NCBI GenBank assembly: GCA_022449945.1
Contig: JAKURM010000004.1
Location: 1-51,727, forward strand
Reading direction: 5' to 3'
DNA: 51,727 nt
DNA from: Candidatus Thalassarchaeum sp.
GTDB taxonomy: Archaea > Thermoplasmatota > Poseidoniia > Poseidoniales > Thalassarchaeaceae
The notes beneath the pieces are model-generated. The model saw only the letters and a program-made list of their open reading frames with translations. It was not told the origin of the DNA and searched no databases. Positions 2,824 to 12,862 of this stretch are shown one piece after another (positions within the stretch are counted from its first letter, which is position 1; every line of letters begins with the position of its first letter). A program made the translations under genes and the position numbers.

Positions 2824-4686
2824 GTGTGCGGGATATCTGGGTTATTGGGAAGCGACTCCTCAGAAATGGCATCCAATATGGCTAGATGCATGCGTCACAG
2901 GGGGCCAGATGGTTTCGGGGGATTCTCCGAAGATATTGGCAGGGGAATAGTAGCCTTTGGGCATTCCAGACTTTCAATAGTTGACATGGGGGGCTCGGAA
3001 CAACCCCTCGTAAATCACTCTGGTTCTGCGTTGGTACATAATGGGGAAATATACAACTACGGTCAGATTAGAAAATCTATTTCCAATTATCAATGGTCTA
3101 CATCTGGTGATTCAGAGACAATATTAGCTCTACATTCAAACTCAATTTCCAGACCTTCCGAAGCCCCAGAATTTGCTACTGGTGTGGACGTTTCCGGAAT
3201 ACGGATTTCTCCGCAGGCCGCTTATCCTGGAAACCCTGCGGAGAAGCACTCCAAATGGGTATCTATGCTGGATGGGATTTGGGGATTCGCTCTTTGGGAT
3301 CCAGCTCTACGTGAACTAATCCTGTGCAGGGATTCAATGGGCGTGAAGCCACTCATACGCACCATACTTCCCAACGGTACTCTGCTATTTGCTTCCGAGA
3401 TGAAAGCATTTCATGCACATCCTGAGTTTGTCCCAATCCCTGACATCACGTCCCTTGCAGTTAGGTTGGCTTACGAGTATCCCCTAGACAGAACAACGCT
3501 ATTCGATGGAGTAATGCAAGTAGGACAAGGGACCATAGAAACATGGGGTATAGACGCCGAAGGAAGAGCCGTAATGACGGGAATTACTCGATATTCCTCT
3601 GAATCGATTAAACCTAATTCCAGCCTAGACTTCGAAAAACACTCAACTATTCTATTTGACACACTAAGTAAGAGTGTCAGAGATCGGATGATGTCAGATA
3701 CTCCCGTCGGCATTGTACTTTCTGGGGGGCTGGACTCTAGCCTAATTGCCGCCCTAGCAAAGGACTCCTCGGATGAATCCTCTCTGGAATCACCTGAATG
3801 CTGGACAGTTGCGGGTAGTGAGGACAATCCTGATCTAATTTCTTCTCAGAGAGTTACCGAAAGTCTTGACTTGCAACATAATGTTAGCATCCTTCATGAT
3901 GACATCTTCTGGAAGAAACTCCCTAGTTTTTCTTGGGATGGAGAAGATATGGACATCACAGTTCTTTTTTGGCAGCCACTATTTGAGGCAATGTCAACCT
4001 CAGTCAAGGTTGGATTGTGCGGACAGGGTGCAGACGAACTTCATGGGGGATATCAGAGATACGCCAATCTGCCACTGCACGCGAAGACTGTGGGCAATCG
4101 CCTGGATCTTGCAAGAGGCATTGACTTCTCAAGAATTGAATCCGGTATCGGGAAACCCTGGGAGGATTCGGGATTTTCACCTGATTCCGTGTTCTCTTCG
4201 GTCCAGTCGGCACTACAGTTCGAACTCGACAGAGGCCAACTAACCAACTTCCAACTTCGTCTTGCGGATAGGCACGGAATGGCATCGGGTTTGGAAGCTA
4301 GGGTTCCATTCTTGGGAAGGTCACATAGAGTTGCATCCCATAAAATGCCAATCGAATGGAGAGTCTCTAGTCCCGAGGAGAAGTTGGCACTAAGAAAGGC
4401 TGCAGAGCTGACAAACCTTCCCGATTCCATAGTTTACAGGCCTAAACTCCCCGCTGGAACAGCCACCGCCCCCAAGATGGTTGAGAGCCTAATTTCCGAA
4501 CTAGAGCCCCATGCACTTGAATGGTCAGCAGAGTATGGGATTTTGGAGCCATTACTTAGGAATCAGCCTGATATGGCGATAGGGATCCGATTATTCCACG
4601 CCACCCACTTTACAGAAGGAGGGATTGAACGCTCTTCAAAAGATTTGATGTCCGTCATCGATGATGTTGGGGACTGGCCCGGATAG
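2824..4686 (+). CDS. asnB: Asparagine synthetase B family glutamine-dependent amidotransferase
   Basis: GTG at 2824 gives the MCGI Ntn nucleophile; HRGPD, HSRLSIVD, HNGEIYN, SGGLDSS, GQGADELHGGY, EARVPFL. Confidence 0.9.
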   Translation: MCGISGLLGSDSSEMASNMARCMRHRGPDGFGGFSEDIGRGIVAFGHSRLSIVDMGGSEQPLVNHSGSALVHNGEIYNYGQIRKSISNYQWSTSGDSETILALHSNSISRPSEAPEFATGVDVSGIRISPQAAYPGNPAEKHSKWVSMLDGIWGFALWDPALRELILCRDSMGVKPLIRTILPNGTLLFASEMKAFHAHPEFVPIPDITSLAVRLAYEYPLDRTTLFDGVMQVGQGTIETWGIDAEGRAVMTGITRYSSESIKPNSSLDFEKHSTILFDTLSKSVRDRMMSDTPVGIVLSGGLDSSLIAALAKDSSDESSLESPECWTVAGSEDNPDLISSQRVTESLDLQHNVSILHDDIFWKKLPSFSWDGEDMDITVLFWQPLFEAMSTSVKVGLCGQGADELHGGYQRYANLPLHAKTVGNRLDLARGIDFSRIESGIGKPWEDSGFSPDSVFSSVQSALQFELDRGQLTNFQLRLADRHGMASGLEARVPFLGRSHRVASHKMPIEWRVSSPEEKLALRKAAELTNLPDSIVYRPKLPAGTATAPKMVESLISELEPHALEWSAEYGILEPLLRNQPDMAIGIRLFHATHFTEGGIERSSKDLMSVIDDVGDWPG

Positions 4687-4954
4687 ATCCTTCATTCGCC
4701 AACAGACGCATCTTTTCTGCGACTCCCCCCTTTCCACTATATCCGCCTATGGAGCCATCAGACTTCACGACTCTGTGACAGGGGACAATGATTGGATACG
4801 GGTTAGAAGAACAGGCATTTGCCACAGCCCGAGCAGATCTGGGATGGCCTATTTCCACTGCCACTTCTTTGTATGACCGAGTCTCCCCGGGGGGTATTTT
4901 CATCAGTTCCTTCCAGACCTTGTTCTGGAAATCAGTACCGTCCAAATTAACCAA
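4655..4954 (-). CDS. ogt: Methylated-DNA--protein-cysteine methyltransferase (C-terminal domain only)
   Basis: FQxKVW..IPPGETRSY..ARAVANA..NPYPIIVPCHRVV with the active-site Cys. Confidence 0.9.
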   Translation of the reverse strand: MVNLDGTDFQNKVWKELMKIPPGETRSYKEVAVEIGHPRSARAVANACSSNPYPIIVPCHRVVKSDGSIGGYSGKGGVAEKMRLLANEGSIRASPQHHR

Positions 4955-4969: not shown

Positions 4970-5260
4970 TTATTCCGCTTCGGCTTGATCGTCCGTCTCG
5001 AAACCACCATCGTCCATTCCAACGATTTCATAGTTCGAAGGAAAAAGTGCAATGACTATTCCTGCAACAATGCATCCAAGTCCTAATGCAAATGCCTGTT
5101 TAACAACCATCAATTCAAGACCAATTGCGAAGAGAATTAGTCCTCCCAAGTTAGAAACCCACACCAATGTCTTGAATGTTGATAGAGAAACCCCCTCGGA
5201 TCTCTTAGTCCTTCTTGGTCCAAACTCAGCACCGAATCTAAGTGGCCCCTTGTCCTCCAT
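4970..5260 (-). CDS. Small membrane protein (2 TM)
   Basis: Two hydrophobic helices and an acidic tail; 4 bp downstream of the ferredoxin gene. Confidence 0.7.
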   Translation of the reverse strand: MEDKGPLRFGAEFGPRRTKRSEGVSLSTFKTLVWVSNLGGLILFAIGLELMVVKQAFALGLGCIVAGIVIALFPSNYEIVGMDDGGFETDDQAEAE

Positions 5261-5264
5261 TCAA

Positions 5265-5597
5265 TCACCTATCAATCATCAGAATTGCATCTGTCGGACA
5301 GGCTAGGACACATAGCTTACAACCAGTACACGGGTCTCTGAGAATCCTAGCCTTTCTGTTGACATCTACACTCATAATTGGGCTTGCCAGAGGGGTGTCG
5401 TAGAGCTCAATAGCATCATCATCGCATACAATCGTACACTGGTCACACCCAATACACTGTTCTTCCTTAACCCATGCAACAGCATCATCTCCACCCTTCA
5501 AACTAGCCTCTTCTTCAGCCTTCATAGAATTAAGGAGCCTCCTAATTCTTGCCTGTTCTACGGCCCTCCTTTCCAATAGGTCCGGTATCTCAGTCAT
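5265..5597 (-). CDS. 2[4Fe-4S] ferredoxin with N-terminal helical extension
   Basis: CIGCDQCTIVC and CTGCKLCVLACP motifs. Confidence 0.9.
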   Translation of the reverse strand: MTEIPDLLERRAVEQARIRRLLNSMKAEEEASLKGGDDAVAWVKEEQCIGCDQCTIVCDDDAIELYDTPLASPIMSVDVNRKARILRDPCTGCKLCVLACPTDAILMIDR

Positions 5598-5664
5598 GCT
5601 CGTTCAACTACTGGCGAGATGCCCATCCTTAAGATAGTGATTCTGCAATAATAGCATTTGCGAA

Positions 5665-8481
5665 CTAAGTCGACTTCGACTCTTCGATCTGTCTAGCTAG
5701 GAAACTCACAACGTCTAAAATTTCGAAGTCATGCCTTGGGTCTCCTTCGAACTTCAGGCATTCGAAGTGTGCTACGCACTTGGGGCATGTTGTCAGCATC
5801 ACATCTGCACCCGTAGCATTCACCTCGTCAAATCTCTGCAACCTTAGAGCACGGCTATTTTCATTACACGACATCATGCTAGAAACGCCACAACAAAGGG
5901 CATCTTCACCCGTATGCTCCATTTCGACTAGCTCGACACCATCTACCGCCCTGACCAAGTCGCGCGGCTCTTCGTAGATATTCATCTGCCTACCGAGTCG
6001 GCAAGGGTCGTGATAAGTCACAGTAACATCATTCTCGGTTCGTAGACTCATGTCAAATCCATTCTCTACTAGGAATTCTGTGGTATGCATAACCTTCATG
6101 TCGTCAAGTTCGTAGTCCAAGGCAAAGGTGCGGAAGCACTCTGCACACGATGTCACCAGAGTGTCTATCCCACTCTGTCCGAGCTTCTTCTGGTTGTATG
6201 CCTTTAACTTTTCAAACACCTCAGTCATTCCTTGCCACTTCTGATCATGCCCGCAGCACTTCAGGAAGTCCCTTCCTAGATATGTAACGGACTCCCCCAT
6301 CTCCTCGAAAATCGTGAATGCCGCGTTTGTGGTCTCTCCGAGGTCCATCTCACCATGATTGACATGGCTGAATATCATCTCTTGATCGATGTAGTCTACG
6401 CATCCTGGGTAGTAGCCAACGCTAGAATCCAGGGGATAGTCTTCTACAGAGATGAACGACTCATCTGCGTCTTCTTCGGCTTCAGCAGCGAGAACTGCTT
6501 GTAATAATGTGTGCGGAATCTCAGCAGCGGGAGGCCCTCCGACAACCAGATTCCTCCTGATGTCGATGTATGAGTCATAGTCAACCAGCTGTGGACATGC
6601 GTTAGTGCATGCGGTGCATGTTAAGCACGAGTACAATGGGACACCGTCATCCTCATTGTTCCATGTATTGTATATGATGTTCAGCTTGTCTCCAGCATTG
6701 AATAGCCTGACTGGACAAGCATCGTCGCACAGGTCGCATCCATAGCACTTGTTCATCTCCCATTCGTAACCCCTTGCCATGCTTCTCATTAGCATGAACA
6801 CAATTGCACCGACTCCTAGGCAAGGAATAAACATCGAATAGATTAGCTTGGCATCCAGACTCTTTGGGTTTTTGTGGTAGGTCGGGTTTTCCAGTGCAAG
6901 GGAGGCTAATTCTGTTAATTCCCTTGTACTATCGGCTCTCGCCAAAGTAGTCCCTTCTTCGGATAGTAGGAGGGGCTGGTAAGCAACAACCGAGAAGTCG
7001 GAAATCATCATGACGCTATCGTTCACTTCGCTGGATTTGGTGACGAACGTAACTGTGTATGATTGAGCCGAATCTAAGTAGATGGTTGCAGACTGGCACG
7101 ATGTTCCACTATTTTCCCACACTAGCTGTCCAGCCTCATCCGTTAGCACCAGGCTTTGTGTGTGGAGTCCAGCATTCCTGACTGTAGTTCTGAAATTGCA
7201 CGAAATATCAGCAGGAACTTCGGAGAGTCCTAGGTCTTCGACCATGAATGTCCTAGACTCTATGATTTCAATATCGCTAGCATCCTCTGAGCCATTATAG
7301 ATTACGTCATCTGCACCAATATTCCTGGAGGTAGATATATCGCTATGCCCATTAACCCCACTGAAGTCAATGATCGTTGACCTAGTCGGTTGGAAAACCC
7401 CCCAATTCGACCAGTATATCGCAGGCATGACACACCATTCGTCGTAGGAGTCGCCTTCGTGGATATCCTCCCAAACTGATAGTTGGCCGGAACTCTCGTA
7501 TGGCAGGCACTTGTCACCCCACTCATCCCAGACATTTCCTTTGTCTACATGGACAAGAGTGTCTGATGGCTGTCCTCTGATGCCATCCAATTCAACCAGC
7601 TTCGCCTCGTTCTGATACTCCCAGAATCCCATTGTCCCGAGTCCTCTCTGATTCCAGAAGCCATTTTCGTAGACAGGCCATGTTATTGCACATAGCAGTA
7701 CGCTAGCGACCAGTGAACCTACCGCAATCTGCCTTCCAAGGATTGGGGTTAATCTAGAACCCATGGGTCCAAGGAGGAACTTTCTCACCGAGAAATACAA
7801 GAGTGCAAAAACGAAAATTCCCGTCAGAACCCATGGAACTGCATTGAATACCTCTGCTGTCCACGGAGACTGCGTGCCGCATCTGAAAACCCCATGCGAG
7901 GTCCCCCAACAGTAGTCTGTTCGATTTTGTCCATACATTTCTAGGAAGATGTTTATCGAGAAAACTGAGATGAACCAAACGTGAGCAAGATATACTGCCC
8001 CAGCAGTAGCAAACCACGGATCTTCGACCCCCCTCTTCTCCCTCTTCCCAATGATGAAGGGGGGTAGTGCCAAGATTCCTACTGGGAGGCCAGTAATTAG
8101 CGCACCCCATACTCCTGCATTCCACGAGACGATCGGTTGTCCAAAGAACTCGCCTATTGGGCCAGCAGGAATGTCGAACTGAGGTAGGTATTCCCCCCAT
8201 CGGAGGTATCCATAGGAGAACAAAACATACCAGTCTGGGAAAACGAAACCAGCCTGGGCATATGGGTCAGCCGCATTGTGCAAAGGTGGGGGGATTATCC
8301 AAGAGTAGAATGCAATAACCATCATTATCGATGCGAAAATTATGGTGTCACGAAGTACCTCTGTTGGCCAGAATGCATGTCCGGTGAAAACCCTCCTCCT
8401 CTCATCTTCCCCTTCTAGTAGGCCTTCCTTTTCACTGATGTAGGTGTCAGCTATCCTTCCGAATCTTTCTATCATCCCCAT
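5665..8481 (-). CDS. Cytochrome b6f subunit IV-like domain fused to an extracellular domain and an HdrD/GlpC-like Fe-S CCG oxidoreductase
   Basis: N-terminal FWPxEV..PPPL..ADP..PDWY (Qo motif); C-terminal CYGCDLCDDACP and CLTCTACTNACP, plus two CCG domains (YYPGC..CCG..CAEC; YHDPC..CCG..CPKC). Confidence 0.85.
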   Translation of the reverse strand: MGMIERFGRIADTYISEKEGLLEGEDERRRVFTGHAFWPTEVLRDTIIFASIMMVIAFYSWIIPPPLHNAADPYAQAGFVFPDWYVLFSYGYLRWGEYLPQFDIPAGPIGEFFGQPIVSWNAGVWGALITGLPVGILALPPFIIGKREKRGVEDPWFATAGAVYLAHVWFISVFSINIFLEMYGQNRTDYCWGTSHGVFRCGTQSPWTAEVFNAVPWVLTGIFVFALLYFSVRKFLLGPMGSRLTPILGRQIAVGSLVASVLLCAITWPVYENGFWNQRGLGTMGFWEYQNEAKLVELDGIRGQPSDTLVHVDKGNVWDEWGDKCLPYESSGQLSVWEDIHEGDSYDEWCVMPAIYWSNWGVFQPTRSTIIDFSGVNGHSDISTSRNIGADDVIYNGSEDASDIEIIESRTFMVEDLGLSEVPADISCNFRTTVRNAGLHTQSLVLTDEAGQLVWENSGTSCQSATIYLDSAQSYTVTFVTKSSEVNDSVMMISDFSVVAYQPLLLSEEGTTLARADSTRELTELASLALENPTYHKNPKSLDAKLIYSMFIPCLGVGAIVFMLMRSMARGYEWEMNKCYGCDLCDDACPVRLFNAGDKLNIIYNTWNNEDDGVPLYSCLTCTACTNACPQLVDYDSYIDIRRNLVVGGPPAAEIPHTLLQAVLAAEAEEDADESFISVEDYPLDSSVGYYPGCVDYIDQEMIFSHVNHGEMDLGETTNAAFTIFEEMGESVTYLGRDFLKCCGHDQKWQGMTEVFEKLKAYNQKKLGQSGIDTLVTSCAECFRTFALDYELDDMKVMHTTEFLVENGFDMSLRTENDVTVTYHDPCRLGRQMNIYEEPRDLVRAVDGVELVEMEHTGEDALCCGVSSMMSCNENSRALRLQRFDEVNATGADVMLTTCPKCVAHFECLKFEGDPRHDFEILDVVSFLARQIEESKST

Positions 8482-8490
8482 GTAAACACC

Positions 8491-9363
8491 TCAATGTGGC
8501 TCCGCAATTCCTTGTACCCAAACGATGAAGAGGTGGGCCAGAATAAGGGCCGTTACTATCACCGGTAGAACGAATACATGCAAGAAGTACATCCTAACCA
8601 CAGTCTGTCCCGTGAGAACGGTATCCCCAAAAAGTGCGTTAGCCATCCATTCCCCTATCAAGGGCGTGGCATTAGCCATGTTTATTCCAATCGTGGCCGC
8701 GCCAAACGCCAGACTATCCCATGGAAGTAGATAACCGGAGTAACCGAAAAAGATGGTGAAGAACATCAAAGCCACTCCAATTAGCCAGTTTAGCTCCCTG
8801 GGGTTCCTGTAAGCACCAGTGAAGTAAACCCTGCACATGTGTAGGAATACAGCTGCTACCATGAAGTGAGTAGTCCAGTGGTGAATTGAACGGATTATGT
8901 ATCCGAATGGTAACTCTAGCATAATGAATTCCATTGATGCGTATGCAGGAGTCGGGTCAGAGCTTAGGTCTCCCCCTGGGACATAGTAGAAGCCAAGAAT
9001 CGTCCCAGAAATTACCAGGATAATGAATGCTAGGAATGAGATCCCACCTAAGCAGTACAATGGATACCAATACCAAATAATCCTTAGTTTATACTTCTCA
9101 GCATGAGTTAGTGGCATTTGCCTGTGCATACTGTGGTAAGAATCCCGGCTCATGCCCCAATAGTCCTGGATCCGAAATCTAGTATCAAGCCAAGAGAATG
9201 CCCATAGGAAGGCCTTCTCTGCCAATCCCATACTTCCTGCGTTAGTTTCAACTGCCCTGAGGATATCTTTTCTCGGAATGTCATCCCTCTCCCTCCTTAG
9301 GGTGAATGCAACGATAACCACGACAATTGCTATGAAAATCCAAAGGAACCAGAACTGAATCAT
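8491..9363 (-). CDS. Cytochrome b6-like (split cytochrome b, N-terminal part)
   Basis: YCLGGI, IRSIHHW..FLHMCRV, PRELNW, GYLLPWD, FLHVFVLP..AHL; four heme-ligating His. Confidence 0.93.
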   Translation of the reverse strand: MIQFWFLWIFIAIVVVIVAFTLRRERDDIPRKDILRAVETNAGSMGLAEKAFLWAFSWLDTRFRIQDYWGMSRDSYHSMHRQMPLTHAEKYKLRIIWYWYPLYCLGGISFLAFIILVISGTILGFYYVPGGDLSSDPTPAYASMEFIMLELPFGYIIRSIHHWTTHFMVAAVFLHMCRVYFTGAYRNPRELNWLIGVALMFFTIFFGYSGYLLPWDSLAFGAATIGINMANATPLIGEWMANALFGDTVLTGQTVVRMYFLHVFVLPVIVTALILAHLFIVWVQGIAEPH

Positions 9364-9372
9364 ATTTTTTAC

Positions 9373-10227
9373 CTACCCACAGAATGTGTACCAATCCTTG
9401 AAATCTGGGAGAGCCTCGATTGCATCGCCATTTACAATGAAGGGAATTAGTGGCATGCCATATGGGGCGGGCCCACCTGTCTTTTTTATTCCAATGAAGT
9501 CGAAGTCTTGTCCATTAGACCTGTTCCGAGCAGTGTTCTTCTCAATTACGGTAGGGTCATATCTACTGGAGTGACAGATACAGAAGAGCTTGTTTCCGCC
9601 CGAGTCAGTTCCACCCGGAAGCCAATTGTCTGCAGTGAAGTCATTGTTCACCAACTGCCATCCAGGTATACAACATAGATGCGGGCACCTGGAGAAAATG
9701 ATGATCATGTTGTCGTGAATTGAAAGCGAGGCAAACTCCTCTTTCTCTTCAATTTCATAACCAGAGCCTACGTATGCTCCGCTGGCCGTAACTCCATCCA
9801 TAAGTTGGAATCTCGGCTCGTTCTCACTCAGGGGCCTGTTCGTATTTTCTTCATGTGGTACGTAGACCGCGACAACAGGTAGTCCGGACCAAAGCCCTGC
9901 AGCAGCGGACATTCCCGTGGACGAATCGGCTGCTTCATCTCTGAATGCCTGCATGGTCATCGGTTGCTTATCCATATTCCCATACCATACTTCAGATCCC
10001 TTGGGTGCGTAGAAGAGTATAGCCTGATCCGAACCTCCCGAACTAGCCTGACCCATTAAAAATGAGGCAAAACCTACACTGCCTAGACTTGCCATGGTAA
10101 TCAGGCCGGCTGCCGTATTGAACGACATCCGCATGAATTCTCTTCGATCAACGAATCCTACGCCCTCTTTTGCCGAATCCTCATTTTCATGCAAAGGCCG
10201 TAGTTTGAATCTCCTAGCCATCATCAC
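9373..10227 (-). CDS. Rieske 2Fe-2S protein of a Rieske/cytochrome b complex
   Basis: Tat motif DRREFM followed by a TM helix; CPHLCC and CICHSSRYD boxes; GGPAP. Confidence 0.92.
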   Translation of the reverse strand: MMMARRFKLRPLHENEDSAKEGVGFVDRREFMRMSFNTAAGLITMASLGSVGFASFLMGQASSGGSDQAILFYAPKGSEVWYGNMDKQPMTMQAFRDEAADSSTGMSAAAGLWSGLPVVAVYVPHEENTNRPLSENEPRFQLMDGVTASGAYVGSGYEIEEKEEFASLSIHDNMIIIFSRCPHLCCIPGWQLVNNDFTADNWLPGGTDSGGNKLFCICHSSRYDPTVIEKNTARNRSNGQDFDFIGIKKTGGPAPYGMPLIPFIVNGDAIEALPDFKDWYTFCG

Positions 10228-10673
10228 ACCTCATATTTCTTCCATGCTTCTGGATCATTCCTTGTGATGTACTTGTTTCGCCTATGCTTTACTATGATTA
10301 CATCTGGTAAGACATACTTTAGGTACACGATTCCCATGATAATTAGGGTTAGAAGGGTCATTGCTAGGTTGAATGATAGTAGCTGCTGATCCCAGTGTTT
10401 GAATAGTCCATATGAAAGAGAGCCCGCCCAGAAAAGAGTCCAAAGAATTCCCCATAGTCCAACTAGTACGATCAACCAAGAGTCTCCTGACGGCGAAACG
10501 CTCGCTCTAACAATTGTTCCAGGCTTTGGTGAGTTGAATACACCATGATCAACTGCGGCCGAGTAAGACTCTTCAGAAATAGTGACATCTTCAAGTGCCT
10601 TGCGTGCGTCTTCCACGCTTACTTCTCCTGACTCGACTTGTCGGAGTAGGCGCATTACCACGTCGTCCTTCAT
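10224..10673 (-). CDS. Hypothetical membrane protein (2 TM) in the Rieske/cyt b operon
   Basis: 4-bp overlaps with both neighbours; short N-terminal helical hairpin plus two TM helices. Confidence 0.75.
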   Translation of the reverse strand: MKDDVVMRLLRQVESGEVSVEDARKALEDVTISEESYSAAVDHGVFNSPKPGTIVRASVSPSGDSWLIVLVGLWGILWTLFWAGSLSYGLFKHWDQQLLSFNLAMTLLTLIIMGIVYLKYVLPDVIIVKHRRNKYITRNDPEAWKKYEV

Positions 10674-11494
10674 AGTTGATCTCCCCTTCTAAGATGCTTT
10701 ATTCTCAGTTTTAGTAGATTACTCCGGCCAACATAATGTCTCGAGAATCCGTACCTGAGAAACAATCCACAGAAGATGATAACAAGCATTACTGCTGCGA
10801 ATCCTAGTAATCCTAGCCAGTGAGCTAGGAGCTCAGCACCCATGTGATGGAGATCTGTGTGCTCTTCCACTGGGGCAGGAGGGTTAATTTCACCATTGCC
10901 GGAGAATATCGTTCTGACCTTGCCGTTATCCGTCCCCTCATCAACACTGGCGGTAAGCCTATTCCACCTGTCTAGGTTTGACGGAGCCATATCGCCATTG
11001 ACAGCATTTCCAGCAACCCAGACAGTCATTGAACCCGATGATTCTTCCGGAGCAGTCCATACAATACTCCACTTCCTGTCAGCCGTGCTGGATCCAGCAT
11101 TGGTGTGCGTTAGGGTGGCCAGGTCACCCTCCCAGTTTTGAACCAGCCCTTCAAAACCATCTCCAGGTGAAAGTTCACCAGAGCTGACTCTCATCGAGAA
11201 TCCCCCAGTGTATGAATCAGCAGATATCTCAGGTCCACCAATCAATTGGATAATTAATTCATATTGCCCCCCAGCCTCGAATTGGTAGGGAAATCCATCT
11301 AAGATCACTGTAACTGAGTTATCCGGACTTTCAGAATGGCACGTGCATCCCGCTAGCGATACATCTCCTTGGTTATTGGCATCGCCACCAACTCCAGTGT
11401 GCAGTGCTTCGCTCGATCCAGCAAATATTGCAATTACAACCAACGTTGCCAAGTACTTTCGATGGGAAATCATTGTCTGTTTCTCACCTTCCAC
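10670..11494 (-). CDS. Secreted Reeler-like beta-sandwich protein with CxCH motif and C-terminal membrane anchor
   Basis: Signal peptide, GCTCH, Reeler-type Y.L.I..GGF..LTH..W..WTAP..GNAVNGD pattern, C-terminal TM helix. The true start may be a few codons downstream. Confidence 0.7.
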   Translation of the reverse strand: MEGEKQTMISHRKYLATLVVIAIFAGSSEALHTGVGGDANNQGDVSLAGCTCHSESPDNSVTVILDGFPYQFEAGGQYELIIQLIGGPEISADSYTGGFSMRVSSGELSPGDGFEGLVQNWEGDLATLTHTNAGSSTADRKWSIVWTAPEESSGSMTVWVAGNAVNGDMAPSNLDRWNRLTASVDEGTDNGKVRTIFSGNGEINPPAPVEEHTDLHHMGAELLAHWLGLLGFAAVMLVIIFCGLFLRYGFSRHYVGRSNLLKLRIKHLRRGDQL

Positions 11495-11956: not shown

Positions 11957-12862
11957 ATGGAAGAAGGAGCCATTGTCATCGTTGGTGTCGGTGGTATAGG
12001 GTGCGCTTGGTCCCAAAGAGCCCACTCACTCTGCCAGGACCTTGCTGAATTATTATTGGTCGATGCGGACGAATCTTCTTTTTCTTCCGATCATGAAGCC
12101 AATTGTCTGCATCTTGATGCAGCCGGCGATGCAAGGGGGGCAGCCGCCCTACCAAATCTCGCTGAACATAGGTTGAAAGAAGGGATGGGCAACATTCAGC
12201 ACTTCCTTGAGAGATCAGAATTGGTCATCATTCTCTCTGCCCTTGGCGGTGGAACGGGTTCGGGTGCCACCTCTGAGATTGCTGCAAGAGCCAGAGAATC
12301 TGGTAGCCTGGTTTTGAGCATCGTCGGACTGCCCTTTGCCGAACAACCTCTAAGGTGCGCAATTGCCGACGTGGCCCTTCCTGAAATCGAGCGGAACTCT
12401 CACCTTTGCATTAGGGTGAGCCTTGAGAGGCTTGCATGGCAGGCGAGATACCGAAACTCAGACTGGAAGATGGGTTCGGAGTGGATAGGCGAACTTATCG
12501 AGGGTTTGGTTACTACATTAGCCCGAGTAGGAAAGATAAATCTTGATCTGATGGATTTGAGAACAGTTATCGATCGACCTGGTAATGCCACTCTACTAGT
12601 TGGCACGGGTTCGACTGAGAACCCATCAGAAGTTGTTCGCATGGCCCGAGAGTCACCCATGTCTGAGATCGGTGTCGATGGAGCAAAGGGTTGCTTGATA
12701 CAGGTTGAGGGCGGTCCTGACATGACTTTGGCACACCTGGATGCAGTTTCAGAAGGTTTTGTCTCTGCACTGGACAGTGACTGCCAGGTAATTCTTGGAG
12801 CCCGGTCAAGTGACGATATGGCCGGAAGCCTAAGACTCGTAGCCGTAGTCAGTGGCCTCTAG
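11957..12862 (+). CDS. Divergent FtsZ/tubulin family protein
   Basis: VGVGGIG, GGGTGSG tubulin signature, INLDLMDL T7-like loop, GGPDMTL..ILGAR..VVSGL C-terminal domain. Confidence 0.85.
   Translation: MEEGAIVIVGVGGIGCAWSQRAHSLCQDLAELLLVDADESSFSSDHEANCLHLDAAGDARGAAALPNLAEHRLKEGMGNIQHFLERSELVIILSALGGGTGSGATSEIAARARESGSLVLSIVGLPFAEQPLRCAIADVALPEIERNSHLCIRVSLERLAWQARYRNSDWKMGSEWIGELIEGLVTTLARVGKINLDLMDLRTVIDRPGNATLLVGTGSTENPSEVVRMARESPMSEIGVDGAKGCLIQVEGGPDMTLAHLDAVSEGFVSALDSDCQVILGARSSDDMAGSLRLVAVVSGL

Follow-up and report, generated by a model that had tools for sequence, protein, structure and literature searches.

What completes the Rieske/cytochrome b complex of Marine Group II (MGII) archaea, and by what route could electrons enter or leave it on the cytoplasmic side? 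This question is raised by one gene on contig JAKURM010000004.1 of Candidatus Thalassarchaeum sp. (assembly GCA_022449945.1), of which positions 1 to 51,727 of the forward strand were analysed (the window, 51,727 nucleotides). Among heterotrophs of the surface ocean, MGII archaea are some of the most abundant, and to our knowledge none has been cultured. Their 'complex III' was noted as a cytochrome b and a Rieske protein without a canonical bc1 (PMC6336850). The gene, an uninterrupted open reading frame (ORF) of 938 aa at 5665-8481 on the minus strand of the window, is the fifth gene of a minus-strand Rieske/cytochrome b6 operon of this Poseidoniales (MGII) archaeon, and database sources annotate its product merely as '(Fe-S)-binding protein' or 'Fe-S oxidoreductase'. 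An earlier, sequence-only reading had described it as a three-part fusion of subunit IV, an extracellular domain and a complete HdrD-like domain. Every element listed there is present and the fusion is conserved; the position stands, and the strand, which had been left unstated, is minus. Here we show the architecture, topology logic, conservation, phylogenetic position and gene neighbourhoods of this fusion, which reveal that the missing MGII subunit IV is hidden in a protein annotated as an Fe-S protein and that it carries a six-cluster-capable cytoplasmic module. We give about an even chance to the proposal that the module, together with the 110-aa ferredoxin Fd110 encoded next to it, forms an Fe-S wire on the n side that links ferredoxin to hemes bn/cn at the Qi site. 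The parts of the fusion and the ferredoxin gene lie as follows.

5665..8481, minus strand: fusion gene, subunit IV plus ectodomain plus HdrD-like module (ORF, motifs; full length conserved)
7936..8400, minus strand: subunit IV core, residues 28-182, helices E, F and G (profile against the PDB, motif, hydropathy)
8227-8238, minus strand: PDWY, residues 82-85 (motif script)
7672..7842, minus strand: two extra transmembrane (TM) helices, residues 214-270, not in fusions outside Poseidoniales (hydropathy, BLAST of loci)
6847..7671, minus strand: ectodomain, residues 271-545, helical/loop part plus beta-sandwich (AlphaFold2 model, structure searches, alignment A1)
6787..6846, minus strand: TM helix 6, residues 546-565, predicted to bring the chain back to the cytoplasm (hydropathy)
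6532..6786, minus strand: 2 x [4Fe-4S] ferredoxin-like part, residues 566-650 (Pfam, motifs, alignment A2)
5752..6426, minus strand: two CCG domains, residues 686-790 and 791-910, five Cys each (Pfam, motifs, alignment A2)
5265..5597, minus strand: Fd110, 110-aa 2 x [4Fe-4S] ferredoxin (Pfam, NCBIfam, neighbourhood)

Taken as a single sequence, the N-terminus stayed under the Pfam cut-off (PF00032, 12.7 bits against 20.7) and matched b6f subunit 4 in the PDB at E 0.44 only; Pfam searches restricted to the N-terminus or to the middle part, run up to E 10, returned sub-threshold matches only. A profile built from the N-termini of 11 diverse fusions (A5) matched residues 227-354 of cytochrome b at E 4.9e-12 and b6f subunit 4 at E 4.6e-10. 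The PEWY-type Qo motif, here P-D-W-Y, is invariant in all 11 rows of A5 and is found in seven of the seven fusion-length representatives (P0244-P0248, P0256, P0306). By profile and motif, the N-terminal part belongs to the family of the cytochrome b C-terminal half and b6f subunit IV (PF00032). PDWY is said, after Kao and Hunte in 2014, to fit a low-potential quinone; since the genome has two matches to PF02621 (futalosine pathway), the quinone is probably menaquinone.

Hydropathy and the known orientation of subunit IV indicate on which side of the membrane the module would lie. A motif and hydropathy script placed hydrophobic segments at residues 46-64, 126-144 and 162-180, the three subunit IV helices, at 214-232 and 252-270, the two extra helices, and at 546-564 (LIYSMFIPCLGVGAIVFML), a sixth helix that in BLAST of the fetched loci aligns with the last TM helix of fusions that have no ectodomain. 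In b6f, subunit IV has its N-terminus on the n side and its helix G ends on the p side. If this order is followed, helices 4 and 5 would run in and out, segment 271-545 would lie outside, and helix 6 would lead back, so that the Fe-S module would be cytoplasmic; the K+R counts of the short loops agree with this placement. The cytoplasmic location proposed in the sequence-only reading is thus supported by the homology to the subunit IV helix order with its extra helices, by hydropathy and by the loop charges.

The module itself carries the complete set of cluster ligands. CxxCxxCxxxCP starts at residues 579 and 619 and CCG at 742 and 863; the five cysteines are C694, C742, C743, C779 and C782 in the first CCG domain, and C827, C863, C864, C899 and C902 in the second. 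Pfam found two CCG domains (1.2e-23) and 4Fe-4S dicluster domains. In an alignment of the module (A2; 29 rows, four of them from outside Poseidoniales), 17 cluster cysteines were invariant and C743 was retained in at least 90% of the rows, while the ferredoxin-like part reached a mean identity of 0.95 among 36 Poseidoniales sequences. None of the NCBIfam equivalogs LdhH, GlpC, GlcF, DsrK, TmcB and TfrB came near its cut-off for the fusion, the best score being that of TfrB (NF004898; 115.5 bits against a cut-off of 385). Among 50 relatives at E <= 1e-45, the nearest clusters reached no named equivalog cut-off and no HdrD model appeared, and the relatives are therefore not nameable in this way. 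The best sequence match in the PDB is EtfD of M. smegmatis (9ojn_A, E 2e-21), to which the module aligns with CCGHD against CTGDS and CAEC against CPHC. The nearest free-standing relatives, from Methanoperedens and others, are proteins of about 340 aa with 41-45% identity; some sources label them HdrD, and they are encoded in clusters resembling hdrD-hdrC-hdrB-hdrA-mvhD.

A phylogeny of the CCG region, as the sequence-only reading had recommended, placed the module more closely. An exhaustive search of representatives gave 164 proteins at E <= 1e-30. Of 91 sequences collected for the tree, 88 covered at least 280 query residues and 78 were kept for a quick maximum-likelihood tree (SH-aLRT support only, midpoint root). 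Those whose cut regions fell outside 280-440 aa were dropped; among them were P0250, P0253, P0259, P0265, P0297 and P0318, each with two or three separate matches to the query. P0244 was left out as its length and match coordinates were those of the G093 row. Fifteen subunit IV fusions and a 370-aa MGIII-like piece formed a clade of 16 rows (SH-aLRT 98) within a clade of 22 rows (SH-aLRT 100), in which their sisters are soluble HdrD-like proteins of hdrABC clusters. A Methanoperedens protein (L101) and EtfD-like proteins fell in another part of the tree. L101 lies next to an hdrE-like ORF and was taken as the HdrD of HdrDE from gene order alone; Pfam did not confirm this upstream ORF as HdrE. 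The term 'complete HdrD-like domain' thus holds for the motifs, two CxxCxxCxxxCP and two five-Cys CCG, and does not hold for a placement with the HdrD of HdrDE. An identity of the module with that HdrD was rejected, the module lying outside the L101 branch and having Rieske and cytochrome b6 genes, not HdrE, as partners. The genome also encodes a stand-alone 693-aa EtfD homologue (G000:C46:1355-3436, minus strand; E 1.6e-104 to 9ojn_A), and such a homologue, with about 29% identity to the fusion module, was found in most relatives searched.

The fusion is widespread in the order. Within a phylum sample of 301 genomes, it was matched, at full length or in pieces, in 63 of 63 other Poseidoniales genomes (21/21 in f1, 42/42 in f3). 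A match was also present in 41 of 41 relatives searched. The database held 870 matches; those listed (120) are 885-942 aa long and 73-96% identical, with Thalassarchaeaceae, Poseidoniales or marine group II as source names. That the three parts are separate genes joined by a chimeric assembly or a mis-called gene would agree with the matches divided over frames or contigs in a few drafts (G001, G233, G239 and G039) and with MGIII, whose loci show the region as shorter pieces, one of 430 aa and, at a second locus, one of 533 aa. Against it stand the database matches, single frames that span residues 1-937 in the genus and, at 61-64% identity, in a second family, and dozens of independent assemblies, among them the one-contig genomes G026 and G211, in which the gene is one open frame of 903-967 aa. 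In addition, contigs from an independent DNA run tile most of 5200-9400, overlapping or nearly abutting, with at most one differing letter each. A chimera has practically no probability left and is refuted for Poseidoniales: the check in independent assemblies that the earlier reading had called for found single frames and not separate unlinked genes.

Outside Poseidoniales, a shorter form of the fusion exists. BLAST of the fetched loci identified fusions of 606-789 aa (G093, G076 and G105) in which subunit IV (30-33% identity) leads straight into a single TM helix and then the HdrD-like module (34-43%), without an ectodomain. Seven representatives at 50% identity (P0244-P0248, P0256 and P0306; 543-789 aa) likewise begin with a subunit IV that has PDWY. 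This two-part fusion is known from other Thermoplasmatota and from a metagenome-assembled genome (MAG) labelled Bathyarchaeia (L123), whose protein is 41% identical to P0245 over residues 6-540. Since the two-part fusion has no ectodomain outside Poseidoniales, helices 4 and 5 and the ectodomain are, by these comparisons, a Poseidoniales-specific insertion into an older two-part fusion.

The ferredoxin Fd110 is the likely partner of the module, as judged from gene order and complex prediction. Fd110 and a 96-aa membrane protein lie directly downstream of the fusion in 12 of the 12 f1 and f2 loci with enough flank, and in MGIIa an Fd110 orthologue (63-65% identity) lies 0.3-15 kb from the fusion in five of five genomes. 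A complex prediction with module alignment A2 (29 rows) and Fd110 alignment A3 (13 rows) scored 0.85 for the pair against 0.00 for the best of three controls, a mark reached by 58 of 80 solved complexes and by 2 of 110 mismatched pairs; the runs agreed in at least 87% of contacts, with a partner pLDDT of at least 81. The predicted interface joins the N-terminal helix and first cluster loop of Fd110 to the linker and CCG region of the module (residues 110-173 and 307-317 of the module chain), and the prediction points to binding of ferredoxin by the module. An orphan 'RnfB' was noted in MGII (PMC6336850). As the best NCBIfam match of Fd110, below the cut-off, is rnfB, Fd110 is probably this orphan 'RnfB', which would then probably be the partner of the module.

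Gene neighbourhoods in distant relatives connect the same fusion with other low-potential carriers. In an uncultured archaeon (L122:3729-12487), the fusion is preceded by genes for a multiheme cytochrome c, a DUF7318-like protein, Rieske and b6, and is followed 3' by Fer4_8 (HdrC-like), CCG x2 (HdrB-like), HdrA-like and FlpD/MvhD genes. The HdrA-like protein is a 1010-aa FAD/Fer4 protein with a C-terminal ferredoxin domain 32% identical to Fd110. In the Bathyarchaeia MAG (L123:50-4691) the fusion is directly followed by an HdrA-like gene only, and in L071 (G076) a gene for a Fer4 and FlpD protein lies directly downstream. The neighbourhoods of L122 and L123 suggest a Rieske/cytochrome b complex linked to a flavin-based bifurcating module.

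These observations can be joined into a working model. The gene product would be subunit IV of a menaquinol-oxidising b6-type Rieske/cytochrome b complex, the MGII 'complex III', whose chain would continue past helix G through two helices, a non-redox ectodomain and a sixth helix into a cytoplasmic HdrD-like module. The module would hold two cubane [4Fe-4S] and two five-Cys CCG noncubane [4Fe-4S] clusters. Together with those of Fd110, up to six Fe-S clusters would form a chain on the n side, in electron exchange with hemes bn/cn at Qi, the site of quinone reduction. The likeliest direction would be inward, from ferredoxin reduced by 2-oxoacid:ferredoxin oxidoreductase through the Fe-S wire to heme cn/bn and menaquinone; the menaquinol would be re-oxidised at Qo by the same complex, and the outcome would be a hard-wired ferredoxin:quinone route via Qi. 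Flow from ferredoxin to menaquinone is favoured because 2-oxoacid:ferredoxin oxidoreductase is present in the genome and MGII archaea are described as aerobic heterotrophs (PMC6336850). We infer that the module contacts the hemes, that electrons flow inward and that the CCG clusters serve as a relay and not as a catalytic site. The working analogy is mycobacterial EtfD, where electrons reach heme b and menaquinone along a wire made up of CCG clusters and two cubanes (PMC13083937).

Several points weigh against this wire. No structure or model brings the proximal [4Fe-4S] close enough to heme bn/cn for tunnelling, and the direction of flow is taken from physiology, not from data. The complex prediction, which is not evidence of binding in cells, used our own alignments and may lean on solved Hdr complexes, and in MGIIa Fd110 lies outside the operon. 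Evidence of expression is limited to small contigs from RNA libraries (three metatranscriptome runs of two studies), which cover just 6412-6565, 6522-6765, 6661-6811, 6846-7012 and 6864-7089 and a few edges; such libraries can contain DNA, and these contigs are no proof of transcription and have no bearing on a single transcript. In EtfD, CT in place of CC and the His in CPHC account for a linear [3Fe-4S] and for a noncubane cluster that is not catalytic (PMC13083937). Both CCG motifs of the fusion keep five Cys and have neither change, and therefore a catalytic disulfide site is possible.

The last point leads to a true disulfide reductase or thiol oxidase in the manner of HdrDE or DsrMK, in which the noncubane clusters would act on a cytoplasmic disulfide, either a small thiol pair or a DsrC-like protein, and Rieske/cytochrome b6 would replace the NarI-type cytochrome b. 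The five cysteines of each CCG motif, the missing Thr and His substitutions of EtfD (PMC13083937) and the HdrD label that some sources give to the 41-45% identical free relatives are what this explanation would expect. It meets a module outside the branch with the HdrD of HdrDE, a predicted ferredoxin interface that sits on the CCG region, and an aerobic organism in which exposed catalytic noncubane clusters would be expected to be oxygen-sensitive (PMC13083937); no candidate disulfide substrate is known in Poseidoniales, although no search was made for one. We regard it as improbable. The sequence-only reading had proposed an active site with an unknown substrate, and this is less likely than an electron wire because a likely ferredoxin partner is encoded next door.

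Electrons might also run through the wire in the opposite direction. The quinol would be bifurcated at Qo, with the high-potential electron passing via Rieske to the oxidase branch and the low-potential electron via hemes bp, bn and cn to the module, which would reduce ferredoxin or, in anaerobic relatives, feed HdrA-type flavoproteins; in that case the complex would use quinol to generate low-potential reductant. Architecture and partner evidence are shared with the inward direction, the HdrA/MvhD-like linkage in L122, L123 and L071 is consistent with it, and reverse flow from Rieske/cytochrome b was proposed for anammox complexes (PMC12954380). However, an aerobic heterotroph with 2-oxoacid:ferredoxin oxidoreductase must oxidise ferredoxin, not reduce it, and the step from heme bn to ferredoxin is uphill, which makes outward flow unlikely. 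Far less probable is an ETF:quinone oxidoreductase like mycobacterial EtfD that brings electrons of beta-oxidation into the quinone pool via the b6 complex. EtfD is the best PDB match, EtfAB genes are present in the genome, and MGII archaea were described as degrading fatty acids (PMC6336850), but the genome has its own 693-aa EtfD, from which the module lies far away in the tree, the EtfD-specific cluster ligands are not in the fusion, and its N-terminus is subunit IV and not a heme b domain. The ETF-dehydrogenase idea was rejected because the separate EtfD homologue exists.

The ectodomain does not look like another redox carrier. Segment 271-545 is acidic (44 D+E against 16 K+R) with 3.3% Trp, and is the least conserved part of the fusion (mean identity 0.50 among the same 36 Poseidoniales sequences). 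Its acidic Trp-rich piece with C325 and C350 is not found in MGIIa (alignment A1); the invariants include C428, C462, RxQPxD, QP and QPL, a single His (H379), and a stretch NPxxxNPKxLDAK that precedes helix 6. AlphaFold2 with 29 sequences gave a short helical region followed by a beta-sandwich (pLDDT 83.8, pTM 0.79). Structure searches, as the earlier reading had recommended for this middle domain, returned generic beta-sandwich matches. The p24 GOLD domain matched the model at Foldseek E 1.1e-5 (TMt 0.65) and at VIA Z 8.6 (rmsd 3.1 over 100 residues), and PPC and collagen-binding domains at Z 7-8, values of about 8 being common among unrelated sandwiches; the ESM Atlas search gave nothing usable. 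No redox fold was among the matches and the domain has no metal motif. A cupredoxin or heme role was set aside, with only H379 and C428/C462 conserved and no redox fold matched, which is an absence of match and not proof. The ectodomain is tentatively read as a structural or docking domain. Its size is evolutionarily plastic: in a family f2 genome (G027) it measures 675 aa within a fusion of 1334 aa (L076:6519-10523).

The operon runs from a 274-aa protein through a DUF7318-like protein, Rieske, b6 and the fusion to Fd110 and the 96-aa membrane protein. Its other members are listed here.

10670..11494, minus strand: 274-aa 'choice-of-anchor V' protein, C-terminal TM helix (family match, motif)
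10224..10673, minus strand: DUF7318-like small membrane subunit (also accompanies the operon in distant relatives)
9373..10227, minus strand: Rieske protein, CPHLCC and CICH (family match, motifs)
8491..9363, minus strand: cytochrome b6, 290 aa, four heme His and CxGG Cys (Pfam, alignment)
4970..5260, minus strand: 96-aa membrane protein, conserved 3' of Fd110 (neighbourhoods)

The b6 gene lies 10 bases upstream of the fusion, and its product retains both His pairs and YCLGG in alignment with spinach b6 (E 8.9e-42). The Cys of CxGG binds heme cn in b6f (PMC5600118), and CxGG is found in the b6 of 11 of the 12 related loci examined. At its N-terminus, the b6 of Poseidoniales is extended by about 85 aa, which include one hydrophobic stretch. 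Other Thermoplasmatota instead have a b6 with a long N-terminal extension (L068:9086-10948, L071:1169-3802 and L079:788-3613, the last of 941 aa); in the extended proteins of 620 and 877 aa, the two searched with Pfam, Big_5 Ig-like domains were found.

No recognisable cytochrome f or c1 was found in the complex. The 274-aa protein has a signal peptide, an invariant G-C-x-C-H at residues 49-53, thus CxCH and not CxxCH, a beta-sandwich and a C-terminal TM helix. In Foldseek, its model (pLDDT just 65.9) matched cytochrome f chains at E 1.1e-4 to 5.8e-4 with a TM score of about 0.3, and these chains rank beside cohesin and reeler domains. The protein is a candidate acceptor of the Rieske electron and a possible stand-in for cytochrome f/c1. 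The genome (88% complete) has PF01578 cytochrome c assembly matches and no match to the cupredoxin family PF00127.

The flanking genes are ordinary-looking: a 301-aa tubulin/FtsZ-family protein upstream of the operon (11957-12862, plus strand) and a 99-aa methylguanine-DNA methyltransferase DNA-binding-domain protein downstream (4655-4954, minus strand). Elsewhere in the genome, a 658-aa protein combines an SdhB-like iron-sulfur part with a flavodoxin domain and, at the N-terminus, a ferredoxin-like stretch (G000:C20:7251-9227, minus strand); it is adjoined by a 286-aa SdhE/HdrB-like CCG protein (G000:C20:6391-7251, minus strand).

If the module does exchange electrons with hemes bn/cn, the links between ferredoxin, quinone and oxygen in MGII respiration change, and the complex becomes a natural, genetically fixed test case for the entry and exit of electrons on the n side of Rieske/cytochrome b complexes, which is still an open question for chloroplast b6f and anammox complexes. 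A bolder and quite tentative possibility is that complex III itself is a ferredoxin:menaquinone oxidoreductase via heme cn at Qi, and that in anaerobic relatives it is coupled to HdrA/MvhD. A mechanism debated for cyclic electron flow through chloroplast b6f would then be fixed by gene fusion, and in L122, L123 and G076 the quinone-based bifurcation of Rieske/cytochrome b would be physically coupled to the flavin-based one of HdrA/MvhD. Cytochrome bc complexes were proposed to derive from dehydrogenases anchored by b-type cytochromes with Fe-S wires (PMC5600118), and the fusion may echo this proposal.

We rate two features as new: the n-side module of this Rieske/cytochrome b complex, and the membrane partner of its HdrD-like module. 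The literature searched, with passages of PMC6336850, PMC9287336, PMC4683180 and PMC5600118, does not describe a fusion of subunit IV to an HdrD-like module; supplementary gene tables could list the protein. The split b6 with four His and CxGG, the PEWY-type motif and the Rieske gene in the operon are shared with b6f and with the Firmicute b6c-type complexes. In contrast to both, the C-terminal extension here recrosses the membrane, by the predicted topology, to n-side Fe-S clusters, and DUF7318-like, choice-of-anchor V, Fd110 and 96-aa membrane proteins are extra subunits. A fusion to a redox domain as such has a counterpart in Bacillus, where subunit IV is joined to cytochrome c. HdrDE, DsrMK, Hme, Tmc and Qmo combine HdrD- or HdrC-like Fe-S proteins with a NarI/HdrE-type dihaem cytochrome b linked to the quinone pool; a cytoplasmic 2 x [4Fe-4S] and 2 x CCG module on a membrane b-type cytochrome is common to them and to the fusion, whereas the module here has a Q-cycle-type Rieske/cytochrome b6 complex as its partner, to whose subunit IV it is covalently fused. 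EtfD (9ojn), the best solved sequence relative of the module, has its own 5-TM heme b domain, and its linear [3Fe-4S] (CT for CC) and His ligand differ from the fusion, in which CC is retained and the first CxxC lacks a His. The soluble HdrD-like proteins of Methanoperedens and others form the sister group; they measure about 340-390 aa and have no membrane part, and the L122 fusion precedes the same kinds of genes. For chloroplast b6f, a ferredoxin-dependent cyclic route through heme cn has been proposed. Anammox Rieske/cytochrome b complexes were in turn proposed to make NAD(P)H (PMC12954380). The idea in common is that n-side hemes exchange electrons with low-potential soluble carriers; the links in chloroplasts and anammox bacteria are debated or based on gene clusters, whereas in the Poseidoniales complex the Fe-S module is built in covalently.

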